Assembly (NCBI GenBank): GCA_037137535.1
Contig: JBAXKC010000040.1
Location: 1 to 22,617, forward strand
Direction of reading: 5' to 3'
Origin: a bacterium
GTDB lineage: Bacteria > Cyanobacteriota > Vampirovibrionia > Gastranaerophilales > JBAXKC01
Length of the DNA stretch: 22,617 nucleotides
Below, piece by piece: positions 59 to 17,842 of the stretch. The notes below the pieces were generated by a model. That model did not search any database and was not told the DNA's origin. It saw only the letters and a list, made by a program, of their open reading frames with translations. The number at the start of each line of letters is the position of its first letter. The first letter of the stretch is position 1. A program made the position numbers and the translations under genes.

Positions 59-180
59 GCAAAAACAAAAACATAGCAGTTCTTGACCGCTACGGGCTTC
101 TTTTCTTACTCTTTGACTTGTTTTTCACAAAACCATTCTTGAGAAAAGAAGCAAATCGCTCGTGGGTTGTGGTTCTTAGG
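59..180 (+). repeat. Copy A of the ~230-bp structured intergenic repeat family. Only the 3' module is present (gcaaaaacaaaaac ... gttcttga ... gcttcttttct ... agaaaagaagc ... cgctcgt).
   Basis: Direct alignment by eye to 8008-8121 and 13009-13135. Contains the internal 11-bp inverted repeat gcttcttttct / agaaaagaagc. Confidence 0.75.
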
Positions 181-324
181 TTTTTTATTTTGCGAAAATT
201 GTCATGCTGAAATCGTTTAATTAATATATTTACCCAAATTCGCTAACATAATATTATTAATCAAACAGAACCTTAAAAACTTAATACAGAAAGCCAACCC
301 TCTGGCTAGAAAGGGGGGAATGAA

Positions 325-402
325 ATGATAGTTCAATTAACTTTAACAGAAAAAGAGCTAGTACTCGCAATACTAACTCTTTGGTTTTTGTTAAAAAACT
401 AG
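325..402 (+). CDS. Candidate 25-aa hydrophobic mini-protein (MIVQLTLTEKELVLAILTLWFLLKN). Possibly a type I toxin-like or leader peptide.
   Basis: ATG is preceded by aaagggggga, the strongest SD in the window, with 5-nt spacing. Potential anti-SD tracts ccctct (300-305) and cccctct (434-440) flank it. It lies in an intergenic region. Not on the ORF track because of its size. Confidence 0.2.
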   Translation: MIVQLTLTEKELVLAILTLWFLLKN

Positions 403-503
403 ATTTCATTAGGTAGAGTGAGTAATCACTTTACCCCTCTGTATTAAGTATTATAGCATTTGTTTTAACTTTTTCAAGATATAAAGTTCTATAAAATAGT
501 TAA

Positions 504-1337
504 TTATTTAAGCGGTAAAAATGTGTTTGGATGTCCGCCTGTTATATAGGTTGCAGGCATTTCACCATTCCATTTTTTAACTGCTTCAAGTTGAACTAAG
601 TTAGGCGAATTTTTTAACGCATTCGATCTGATTTTAATTGATTCAGCTTCTGCGTTGGCTTTAGTTACCGTAATTTGAGCTTCTCTTTGAGCTGATTGCA
701 GTTCATAAACCTTTTGTCTGGCTTTTTCCAATTCAACCTGTTTATTTTTCAATGCTTCGGTATATGAGGCATCAAATTGAATGTCTGTTATAGGGATATT
801 CTGAATATTAACAATAGGAATGTTCAAATCGCTATCTACAACATATTCTCTTGCTTTAGCAAGGACTTTCTGCCTTACTTCTTCACGCTCCGTAATTAAT
901 TGACTGGCGGTATATTGACCTAATACGGTTTTAAAGGCTGTTTCTACGTAAGAATAAATATTATTTGAAACAACATCTCTTCCATATTTAGAATAAATTT
1001 GTTTTAGCGTTGCTGATGGCTGATTGTAAATGATGTCATATTTAACGGTAATCGGCTGATTATCCTTTGTATATGCGCTAGACTCGATAAAATTACCTTT
1101 TCCGTCCGCTACTGCCTGATTTTTTGTATTAAAAATCATAACTTCATCGACAAAAGGCTTTCTAAAATTAATTCCCGGTTGCAATACTCTGTCCTGAATA
1201 ACTCCGAACGTTTTAACAAGGCCGACTTCACCTGTTTCAATAACAGTAACGGGATTTAAGAACATTATCCCTAAAAAAGCAGCAATTCCTACAAAAACAA
1301 GTTTGTTTTTAATATCAGATGTTTTAATTTGATTCAT
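504..1337 (-). CDS. SPFH/band 7 (prohibitin/HflC-like) membrane protein
   Basis: N-terminal TM anchor followed by a typical SPFH core (GEVGLVKTFG...) and a C-terminal coiled coil rich in A/E/K/Q. RBS ggaggg 9 nt upstream. Confidence 0.85.
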   Translation of the reverse strand: MNQIKTSDIKNKLVFVGIAAFLGIMFLNPVTVIETGEVGLVKTFGVIQDRVLQPGINFRKPFVDEVMIFNTKNQAVADGKGNFIESSAYTKDNQPITVKYDIIYNQPSATLKQIYSKYGRDVVSNNIYSYVETAFKTVLGQYTASQLITEREEVRQKVLAKAREYVVDSDLNIPIVNIQNIPITDIQFDASYTEALKNKQVELEKARQKVYELQSAQREAQITVTKANAEAESIKIRSNALKNSPNLVQLEAVKKWNGEMPATYITGGHPNTFLPLK

Positions 1338-1429
1338 TGATTATTTCCCTCCAGACTTTAAATATACTACTATTTTCGACTTTATTCAAGAAATCATAAC
1401 AGCATATTAAAGACTTAAGCAATTATAAA

Positions 1430-15868: not shown

Positions 15869-16010
15869 TTAAAATTCCTTTGAGAAAAGTTCAACACCCA
15901 AAATATTAAAACAATACGTTTAATAAAATTGTCAAATTATTACAAAAATATAACTATTTAGTCTCTAAACTCTATTTTAATAAATAATTACTAAAAAGCA
16001 AAGATATAAC

Positions 16011-16136
16011 CATGAGGTTGTCACCTATAATTTCTCTTCGTTGCTGTACTATGTCGATGTCTAAAGCCATCGACATCCTTTTTGTTTTTTAAAAAACAAA
16101 AAGGATGCAAAAACAAAAACTTCTGGGTGATGGGGA
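16011..16136 (+). repeat. Copy E of the structured repeat family (5' module only)
   Basis: catgaggttgtcacctataatttctcttcgtt..., hairpin tcgatgtctaaagccatcga, and a perfect palindrome cctttttgttttttaaaaaacaaaaagg with compensatory a-to-g and t-to-c changes relative to other copies. Ends after gcaaaaacaaaaac. Confidence 0.8.
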
Positions 16137-16317
16137 TTTAGTTGCGGTTTTTTAATTGTTTAAATATCAACTATAATAAGGCTCGCCGGTTCTACTTTTA
16201 ATTAAAATATTATATGAAGATTAATATAATATAAAACATAAAAATTCAAGCAACAAATATTTTTGCCGCTTAATTTTCTGTTTTTTACTTTTTTCTTAGC
16301 GATAAAAGCTCTATCCG

Positions 16318-17526
16318 TTACAATCTGTATTCATCGCCTTCTGTGTTGTATAAGCTGTCAAGCATTTCATTCCATTGATCTTTTGTACCGTACATATATT
16401 TACTTCTTGAAACATCATAATAAAGACCTTCTTTGTCGGTTAAATCAAAGATGAATTTATTTCTTGGGTCAATTACAATTTTTTTGCCATCATCTCCGTT
16501 ATATTCAAGGAAGGTATGACGTTTTTTGGAGACCATTGTTGTCTTAATATCGCTTAATTGAGCCATTGCTTTAGTAAACATTGTTTGCGGTAAACATGTT
16601 CCTGTAGCTTTAGGCATATCGTCACTTCCGCTGGAATATTCACCTACATTAACAATTCTGCAAGGTGTTTTCTCCGCCATATAATCGGAATACATCATTC
16701 CTTCTTCTTCCATGGGCTTTTCAGGAGCAAAAAATTCTGATTCCGTTTCAAGAATAGCTTTTGCAACTTCCATTGAATCCGTTTTACCAACACTTCTTAA
16801 CTTTTTATTTAATTTTTTAGAGGCTTCAACTAAAACCGGATCATCTTCTAAATTAACCTGAATGTTTGTGTTTAAGGCTTTAACTCCTATATCGGACATA
16901 TCTATTTCCCAAGTTCCGTTCATATCAAAGTTTCTGTTTGAATGAATAAAACCTTTTTCAAAATTTTCCTTCAATTCAGCTCTTGGTCTTACATCTCTGC
17001 AACTATCTTTTCTTTGTTGGAAAAAATCAGCCATTTGTTTAAGCGTTTTTTTAGGAAGATTAAGCGCATAAGCCTGTTTTAAAAGTTCAAGCTTGAGATC
17101 TTTTGACCTGCTTTTTTTATTTGTAAAAATTTTGTGGTTTTCATCGGTACATGTTTCTTTCTCTGAGTCATATACAAAATCTCTGGCATCACCCAATAAA
17201 ACACGTGTTTGATCAAGACATTCCAAACCTTTTTTTGCCAGATTATTTTTCATTTTATAATCTCGCTCTTTAGTTGCTTTATCAAGATAATCTGAAGCTT
17301 TATCCATAGTTTTATCTAAATCATTAAATATTTTGCCTAATTGAGTCTTATCGGCATTATTGCCCTTAAAAGCGGTTATCAGCATATCTCTTTTATAAAA
17401 ATTCAAGTATTGATTATTTTCATAAGAAATATTTATATGATTTAATATTACAGGTTTTTCAGCCGTAATGTTTTTTTGTGTTTTATTTTTCACCGTCTTA
17501 TTAAGCGATAATGTATTTATAATCAT
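16318..17526 (-). CDS. Hypothetical effector-like protein, paralog of 1430..2656. C-terminal Cys-His-Asp transglutaminase-like/papain-fold core.
   Basis: PKATGTC(x~27)RHTFLEY(x~10)IVIDPRNK, plus shared NLEDDPVLVEAS...DSMEV...SEFF and EKGFIHS blocks. RBS aagggg. Full repeat copy F sits ~115 bp upstream. Confidence 0.75.
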   Translation of the reverse strand: MIINTLSLNKTVKNKTQKNITAEKPVILNHINISYENNQYLNFYKRDMLITAFKGNNADKTQLGKIFNDLDKTMDKASDYLDKATKERDYKMKNNLAKKGLECLDQTRVLLGDARDFVYDSEKETCTDENHKIFTNKKSRSKDLKLELLKQAYALNLPKKTLKQMADFFQQRKDSCRDVRPRAELKENFEKGFIHSNRNFDMNGTWEIDMSDIGVKALNTNIQVNLEDDPVLVEASKKLNKKLRSVGKTDSMEVAKAILETESEFFAPEKPMEEEGMMYSDYMAEKTPCRIVNVGEYSSGSDDMPKATGTCLPQTMFTKAMAQLSDIKTTMVSKKRHTFLEYNGDDGKKIVIDPRNKFIFDLTDKEGLYYDVSRSKYMYGTKDQWNEMLDSLYNTEGDEYRL

Positions 17527-17642
17527 CCGATTGCCCCTTAAACTACTCTATATATATTTTTTATTAAAATAAAGTAGCATAAATACTTTCTACTTTTAAT
17601 TTAAATATTATACAAAAATCAACATAATTTAAAAGTACATTA

Positions 17643-17842
17643 CCCGAGCGGTTTGCTTCTTTTCTCAAGAATTGTTTTGTGTAAAACAACTCAAAGAGTA
17701 ATAAAAGAAGCCGCTAACAGTCAAGAACTACTATGTTTTTGTTTTTGCTTCCTTTTTATTTAATAAAAAGGGAGTCGATGGCTTCAGACATCGAAATTTT
17801 CTTGTAATTAAAGAATTTAGTCAGTATAGAAACAAGTTTCAC
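17643..17842 (-). repeat. Copy F, near full-length member of the structured repeat family (minus orientation)
   Basis: Its reverse complement matches 7893-8121, including the 5' arm gaaacttgtttctatactgactaaattctttaat and hairpin tcgatgtctgaagccatcgac. The palindrome is shortened (cctttttatttaataaaaagg). Confidence 0.8.

Follow-up and report, generated by a model that had tools for sequence, protein, structure and literature searches.

We analysed a family of repeated sequences in the 22,617-nucleotide contig JBAXKC010000040.1 (assembly GCA_037137535.1, positions 1 to 22,617 of the forward strand) of a bacterium of the Gastranaerophilales, here called the window, to which all copy counts refer. 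The repeat is probably a lineage-restricted family of non-autonomous, structure-dependent mosaic intergenic repeats of the same general kind as the bacterial interspersed mosaic elements (BIME) and BOX. Variable combinations of a few conserved intergenic motifs, as in a mosaic repeat, are found in seven window copies (A to G) and in a diverged copy from a relative. Moreover, paired changes keep three hairpins in the two genomes, indicating that structure, and not sequence alone, is maintained.

Seven copies of one composite unit

An earlier note, made from the DNA letters, had described six copies of a two-module repeat. An nhmmer profile built from the same six finds all of them at or near the coordinates first given (E 1e-40 to 1e-71) and nothing comparable elsewhere in the window. 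Set against dinucleotide shuffles, five matches to the 3'-module pattern compare with 0.00 expected, five matches to the A-rich linker GCAAAAACAAAAAC with 0.15 expected and four matches to the motif of the small hairpin HP1 with 0.01 expected. The sites were therefore right and all six copies are real, but the units extend further than described: the tails end at about 199 (A), 6061 (B) and 13152 (D), and D starts at ~12883. A seventh, partial copy, termed G (profile E 0.0095), has to be added to the six and is the weakest member of the family.

The full unit, as defined by alignment and folding, is ~230-270 bp long with ~30% G+C and consists, from 5' to 3', of a 5' arm, the hairpins HP1 and HP2, the linker, a core that contains a third hairpin (HP3) and a tail. 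The copies are:

Copy A, 59-199 (+): linker 59-72, core 79-163 with the HP3 arms at 96-106 and 142-152, tail 164-199; HP1 and HP2 absent, contig start 58 nt upstream; nhmmer match 44-192, E 3e-42.
Copy B, 6061-6237 (-): degenerate HP2 6205-6237, linker 6191-6204, core 6099-6183, tail 6061-6098; HP1 absent; nhmmer match 6070-6236, E 1e-48.
Copy C, 7882-8136 (+): full unit with C/F-type 5' arm 7883-7939, HP1 7959-7978, HP2 7979-8011, shortened linker 8009-8018, core 8026-8110, tail 8111-8136; nhmmer match 7882-8136, E 6e-64.
Copy D, 12883-13152 (+): full unit with imperfect HP1 12959-12978, HP2 12979-13012, linker 13012-13025, core 13033-13117, tail 13118-13152; nhmmer match 12897-13145, E 2e-71.
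Copy E, 15993-16159 (+): D/E-type 5' arm, HP1 16051-16076, HP2 16074-16107, linker 16107-16120, tail 16121-16159; 85-nt core absent; nhmmer match 15993-16159, E 3e-40.
Copy F, 17621-17853 (-): full unit with C/F-type 5' arm 17794-17850, HP1 17775-17794, short HP2 17748-17774, linker 17735-17748, core 17644-17728; nhmmer match 17621-17853, E 5e-62.
Copy G, 4289-4345 (+): piece of a 5' arm, HP1 variant, half a linker (GCAAAAAC) and a tail-like stretch; HP2 and core absent.

Pairwise alignment shows 77-90% identity among the copies, which are thus diverged paralogous DNA and not assembly duplicates. In the independent Logan assembly of SRR12676973, a 3.1-kb contig begins inside D and ends inside E, as is expected of multi-copy or palindromic DNA. 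In practical terms, the copies break short-read assemblies of this organism, leaving contigs that end inside them, and they may serve as strain markers.

Anatomy of the unit

The description of the family as modular and hairpin-rich is borne out by the make-up of the copies and by the folding of all hairpins. "Two modules", however, understates the unit. It has six parts or more, and its variants are best explained as one longer unit that has suffered deletions or had an arm replaced, not as independently moving elements: copies differ by internal deletion, by 5' loss or by replacement of an arm. The flanking arm of the earlier description is present, but in two unrelated versions, one shared by C and F (89% identity over 57 nt) and one by D and E. 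At 12883-12908 (CGTAATTGCGAGTAAAGCTAAGCAATC), the 5' arm of D opens with one lone arm of a palindromic repeat that is widespread.

HP1 has the form TCGATG-N8-CATCGA with a stem of 6-7 bp; in G its loop GATGTCTAAAGC is unchanged and its stem is different (GTTTTG/CAAAAC). HP2 is an A/T-rich near-perfect palindrome of 13-16 bp. It had been taken for a perfect, AT-only palindrome, but it has C/G feet (CTTCC...GGAAG), is perfect in E alone (a 34-nt palindrome), is shortened in F and is degenerate in B. The linker that follows is the most invariant segment of the unit and lies outside every hairpin. The core is 85 nt long (GTTCTTGA...CGCTCGT) and holds HP3, formed by the arms GCTTCTTTTCT and AGAAAAGAAGC with a stem of 11-13 bp, plus a small inner hairpin. 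The 11-bp inverted repeat noticed earlier is the one in HP3; it is perfect in A alone, and its arms are 35 nt apart rather than about 40. The tail is G/T-rich and ends near TTTTGCGAAAA, and the motif TTCTTGA recurs two or three times per unit.

Two copies had been read as solitary modules. Copy A does carry the 3' module, but it has the linker as well, and no copy is made up of the 3' core alone. Copy E was said to break exactly at the linker; instead, a G/T-rich tail (GGGTGATGGGGATTTAG..GGTTTTTT) continues directly after it, the same tail that lies 3' of the 3' module in A and B, so that E represents an internal deletion of the 85-nt core. What is missing from copy G is exactly the segment bounded by two AAGC microhomologies, which lie on either side of the 3' arm of HP1 plus HP2.

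Six-frame translation reveals no reading frame conserved across the copies, and a coding function was therefore rejected. The sole open reading frame (ORF) over a copy, 12887-13192, is not conserved in the others and exemplifies how copies may be annotated as ORFs by mistake. The combination of HP1 and the T-run of HP2 behind it was flagged as terminator-like, the T-run beginning 5-6 nt past the stem. A minus-strand terminator-like hairpin enclosing GTTCTTGA in A was also considered; by hand pairing, it is not kept in the other copies. A sigma-54 or sigma-70 promoter in the core was likewise discarded, as spacing and hexamers do not fit by eye and the promoter scan is not above shuffles.

Paired changes maintain the hairpins in two genomes

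A relative of the window organism (contig L003, JGI 3300044987), whose potassium transporter Kup is 80% identical to that of the window, carries a single, diverged copy of full length at 4287-4493 (E 1.4e-10). In either species every hairpin folds, with a folding z of about -3. HP1 of the relative, CGACATC-TGCG-GATGTCG, differs from the window copies in both sequence and loop, and its HP3 arms (GCTTGATTTTT/AAAAATCAAGC) differ from those of the window by three paired changes. In HP1 and HP2 together, 5 of 19 pairs have changed on both sides, a number reached in 0 of 500 shuffles, and 97% of the cells are paired, compared with 42-65% when the partners are slid. The corresponding figures for HP3 are 3 of 17 pairs, reached in 7 of 500 shuffles, and 90% of the cells paired, compared with about 55%. 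Two paired changes in HP2 also distinguish D from E inside the window. The stems of the window copies also hold uncorrected mismatches, and the layout of HP2, 13-0/2-13 in the window, is 13-7-13 in the relative.

Copies are intergenic and flanked by unrelated genes

The window has a G+C content of 26-37% and contains 16 credible genes, which encode, among others, an SPFH protein, a DnaJ-domain protein, an MFS transporter, a TPR protein, Kup and an iron-type alcohol dehydrogenase (Fe-ADH); the remaining genes include several lineage-specific proteins without Pfam match, some of them paralogous. As claimed before for six of them, the ORF map places the copies, all seven, outside long ORFs, i.e. 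in intergenic DNA, on both strands. D and F lie between divergent genes, G between convergent genes and A at the contig start. Tandem genes surround B, C and E; B is oriented like them, C and E against them. The promoter-proximal placement that had been pointed out is no more than a consequence of intergenic location. Orientation to the neighbours is mixed, which argues against a role as a 5' leader. The real terminators of the upstream genes are different hairpins outside the copies.

The genes that flank the copies are mutually unrelated (Kup, Fe-ADH, MFS, TPR and several without Pfam match). Two pairs of paralogues are found in the window, 1430-2656 with 16318-17526 and 19836-21230 with 21493-22614. 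Copy F is upstream of one paralogue, and no copy lies beside its paralogue 1430-2656 or beside the other pair. The unrelated flanking genes, together with a paralogue of F's neighbour that has no copy, make segmental duplication unlikely.

The family is confined to a narrow clade

The best named relatives of the window Kup (67-69% identity) belong to Candidatus Melainabacteria. Melainabacteria are the non-photosynthetic sister group of Cyanobacteria. The copy in L003 is directly upstream of a Terminase_3 gene, a context unlike any in the window. No copy was found in the 10.7 kb examined of a relative with Kup 76% and alcohol dehydrogenase 75% identical, nor in 20 kb of a relative with Kup 70% identical (L004), which has a marginal piece only. 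The presence of a copy in one relative and its lack in the stretches examined of two more distant ones indicate that the family is confined to a narrow clade.

Two observations concern these contigs. In L003 (2010-5877) and the Logan contig L005, CHAP-domain and Terminase_3 genes come after kup; they may represent a prophage or an island derived from a phage. The marginal piece in L004 (5966-6041, -) resembles HP2 plus linker (CCTTTTTGCTTTTTACTAAAAAACAAAAAGTAGCAAAAAA; covariance-model E 0.003) and might represent a module standing alone or an AT-rich palindrome due to chance.

Searches of sequence collections gave no further member. The 3'-module pattern has one chance match among species-representative genomes, in a Clostridia metagenome-assembled genome (MAG), and none in IMG/VR or in JGI metagenomes. 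A relaxed two-arm pattern hits 48 metagenome loci, of which nhmmer confirmed 0. The 3'-end pattern has 2 chance matches in IMG/VR, patterns specific to the L003 copy have none there, and blastn against plasmid and phage records has none. The comparison with Rfam that the earlier note had proposed yields no match overlapping any window copy at E up to 1; over the L003 copy, scores are 14-22 bits, compared with gathering scores of at least 47. A literature search found nothing relevant on interspersed structured repeats in Melainabacteria.

Origin and possible function

We favour the view that the mosaic repeats spread through intergenic DNA in the ancestor of both genomes and that the copies are now mostly decaying. 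Recombination may have driven this spread, or else a trans-acting function able to read the hairpins as single strands. The 77-90% identity and the stem mismatches suggest that most window copies are old, and some deletions may have arisen by slippage across palindromes, which the AAGC-bounded loss in G would fit. In copies transcribed together with a neighbouring gene, the stable stem-loops could act as barriers at RNA 3' ends or as weak terminators, a role that is plausible given the terminator-like HP1 and HP2 T-run.

Several points weigh against this view. We infer mobility from dispersal alone, and the window contains no gene for a transposase, tnpA/tnpB, RAYT, recombinase, integrase or reverse transcriptase. 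When C, D, F and the L003 copy were searched for inverted repeats, only internal hairpins came up and no shared terminal inverted repeats, in line with the earlier impression; a 12-nt inverted pair flanks the L003 copy alone and a 15-nt pair the core of D alone, neither being common to other copies. No direct repeat that could be a target duplication is visible at the alignment-defined boundaries, which are fuzzy in the AT-rich flanks. Relatives with Kup or Fe-ADH 70-80% identical share no synteny with the window and hence allow no comparison of filled and empty sites. The sample comprises seven copies and one from a relative, the double changes come mostly from that single sequence, and paired changes in DNA palindromes can arise without selection via intrastrand template switching. 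Finally, a model in which the hairpins serve mobilisation only leaves the invariant unpaired linker unexplained.

The main rival is a multi-copy family of genes for small RNAs (sRNAs), or of cis-acting RNA elements, with a promoter of its own in each 5' arm and a linker that might be, for example, a single strand bound by protein; we consider it unlikely. Such RNAs would account for hairpins conserved through paired changes between two species, for an unpaired linker that is the best-conserved segment, and for an HP1 loop (UGUCURAAGC) that is kept in G despite a different stem. In addition, a box lies 30-55 nt upstream of HP1 in four copies, reading TATAAT in E, TATAAA in D and TATACT in C and F. 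These boxes, however, have no convincing -35 box, the promoter scan is not above shuffles, the 3' end of the unit has no intrinsic terminator and no Rfam family matches. The strand drawn has U-G pairs, one of them in all six sequences, whereas the other strand would have two wobble pairs only; wobble pairs thus point slightly towards the strand drawn, a weak sign that a single strand is functional. Against functional paralogous RNA genes speak the stem mismatches and the losses of whole modules (A, B, E, G), which look like decaying DNA, and the differing sequence and loop of HP1 in L003. The broader proposal of a functional structured RNA or single-stranded DNA element of a small Melainabacteria-like clade, be it a multi-copy sRNA or an element mobilised without terminal inverted repeats, appears rather improbable. 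If it held, the features recognised would be the three hairpins together with the invariant A-rich linker, and the very widespread CGTCATTGCGAG...GCAATC palindrome at the 5' boundary would point to a shared, undescribed hairpin-reading machinery.

Very unlikely, in our view, is a DNA-level cassette for protein binding or recombination, in which HP2 would be the site of a dimeric regulator, a nucleoid protein or a tyrosine recombinase (dif or pdif-like) and the repeats would delimit exchangeable gene modules. HP2 is indeed a near-perfect palindrome whose symmetry is kept by paired changes, TTCTTGA is present two or three times per unit, and the copies bracket small groups of lineage-specific genes, paralogues included. 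Yet A and G lack HP2 and B has it in degenerate form, the HP2 of the window copies shows no asymmetric spacer at its centre, the window encodes no recombinase, and it would be left unexplained why HP1, HP3 and the linker are conserved. An origin without mobility, in which the copies are leftovers of segmental duplication of one intergenic or promoter region along with paralogous genes, can draw on the paralogue pairs of the window and on the position of F upstream of one paralogue. It is already largely refuted by the unrelated flanking genes; the lack of a copy next to 1430-2656 or the other paralogue pair and the different context of the relative's copy also speak against it, and we regard it as highly improbable.

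Three further candidates were rejected. A c-di-AMP (ydaO-type) or other riboswitch upstream of kup has no Rfam match. An integron attC array is at odds with the mixed gene orientation and with the lack of an integrase in the window, and template and variable repeats of a diversity-generating retroelement with the same mixed orientation and the lack of a reverse transcriptase in the window.

Comparison with known repeat families

The placement of the family in the same behavioural class as RPE, Correia and ERIC elements stands and extends to BOX and BIME. It represents no new class of system, but it is a test case for how repeats persist without terminal inverted repeats. BIMEs, known from Escherichia coli and its relatives, are mosaics that include palindromic REP units. 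Like them, the family is an intergenic, non-coding mosaic in which a few conserved parts, palindromic units among them, are variably combined without terminal inverted repeats; in addition, the D/E-type 5' arm opens with one arm of a REP-like palindrome, much as REP units join other BIME motifs. There is no sequence similarity, the parts are longer here, and three different hairpins take the place of one REP in alternating orientation. REP and REPIN sequences themselves are short imperfect palindromes of 20-40 nt that are present many times, frequently as inverted doublets, in contrast to a 230-nt unit whose three hairpins all differ; the likeness is limited to the initial 26 nt of D (12883-12908), which resemble one arm of a REPIN-like inverted doublet at 3720-3800 of L003.

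Rickettsia palindromic elements (RPE) are known for in-frame insertion into coding genes. They resemble the present family as hairpin-forming repeats of 100-250 bp with diverged old copies in one lineage, whereas here all copies are intergenic, without conserved frame and without sequence similarity to RPE. The hairpins also set the family apart from elements derived from IS200/IS605 (PATE): those have similar subterminal hairpins at their left and right ends that a single TnpA recognises, while no sequence is common to HP1, HP2 and HP3.

BOX elements of Streptococcus pneumoniae and S. suis have modules that can be absent or replaced, with alternative end modules in S. suis, and they show past spread with little recent activity (PMC3049150). 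Both BOX and the present family are composite modular intergenic repeats with extensive predicted secondary structure. In BOX, boxA and boxC pair into the main structure and boxB is tandemly repeated in variable number; here, the modules fold separately and none is tandemly amplified. The two share no sequence similarity and belong to different phyla. SPRITE, a terminator-like repeat of S. pneumoniae (PMC3049150), recalls the terminator-like HP1 and HP2 T-run, but the unit here is far larger than a terminator, and the real terminators of the window are other hairpins. MITEs (miniature inverted-repeat transposable elements) include Correia, ERIC, RUP and the cyanobacterial Nezha (PMC3049150). 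The mosaic repeat is similarly small, AT-rich, strongly base-paired, non-coding and dispersed in intergenic DNA near promoters. Because it lacks shared terminal inverted repeats, however, it fails the defining test of a MITE, unlike another unit of the window, at 4380-4723, which does have such boundaries.

This MITE-like unit is ~344 bp long and adjoins the partial copy G between convergent genes. Its inverted repeats comprise 22 nt at 95% (4396-4417/4684-4705) and 14 nt at 93% (4380-4393/4710-4723).

A widespread palindrome at the D/E-type 5' boundary

The palindrome of which one arm (CGTAATTGCGAGTAAAGCTAAGCAATC) forms the 5' boundary of D has the form CGTCATTGCGAG..AGCGA.GCAATC and is otherwise unlinked to the mosaic repeat family. 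In L003 it makes up the inverted doublet at 3720-3800, and single arms in direct orientation are found on both sides of the copy, at 4268-4296 and 4521-4552. The end of the Logan contig L005 falls exactly within it. In its canonical form, GTCATTGCGAG-N3-AGCGA-N-GCAATC, it is present in at least 120 IMG/VR contigs, among them the loci L059-L138; among the matches listed, the contigs have 30-72% G+C, and the palindrome often forms inverted doublets about 25 nt apart. In six of these contigs it matches no Rfam family, and a literature search found nothing relevant. We take it to be the source of the spurious peptides "SLRGA.." and "LRFARND.." that are common in annotations.

Other features of the window

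The paralogues 1430-2656 and 16318-17526 belong to a lineage-specific family of ~400-aa proteins without Pfam match. Its other members, P0122 and P0123, are encoded on a 17.7-kb contig of the same MAG. All four proteins are from this MAG, with 38-49% identity, and a search of 5.8 billion proteins found a homologue in no other genome. A 1.6-kb ENA contig reached via the paralogous proteins contains no copy of the repeat. The gene 16318-17526 is flanked by a 47-nt direct repeat (85%) at 16190-16236 and 17588-17634, just outside E and F; its orientation relative to these two copies is opposite.

Near the contig start, 325-402 (+) is a 25-aa hydrophobic ORF (MIVQLTLTEKELVLAILTLWFLLKN) with a strong Shine-Dalgarno sequence (AAAGGGGGGAATGAAATG). 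A near-consensus promoter at 477-450 (-; 11/12 with TG) faces it, a layout that resembles a type I toxin-antitoxin pair. Finally, a terminator hairpin (AAAACGCTTCGGAAATAACCGAAGCGTTTT) is present three times, at 19262-19298, 19758-19794 and 21455-21491, beside the tandem paralogues 19836-21230 and 21493-22614. Its flanks are repeated as well. The arrangement is a local duplication unrelated to the mosaic repeat family.

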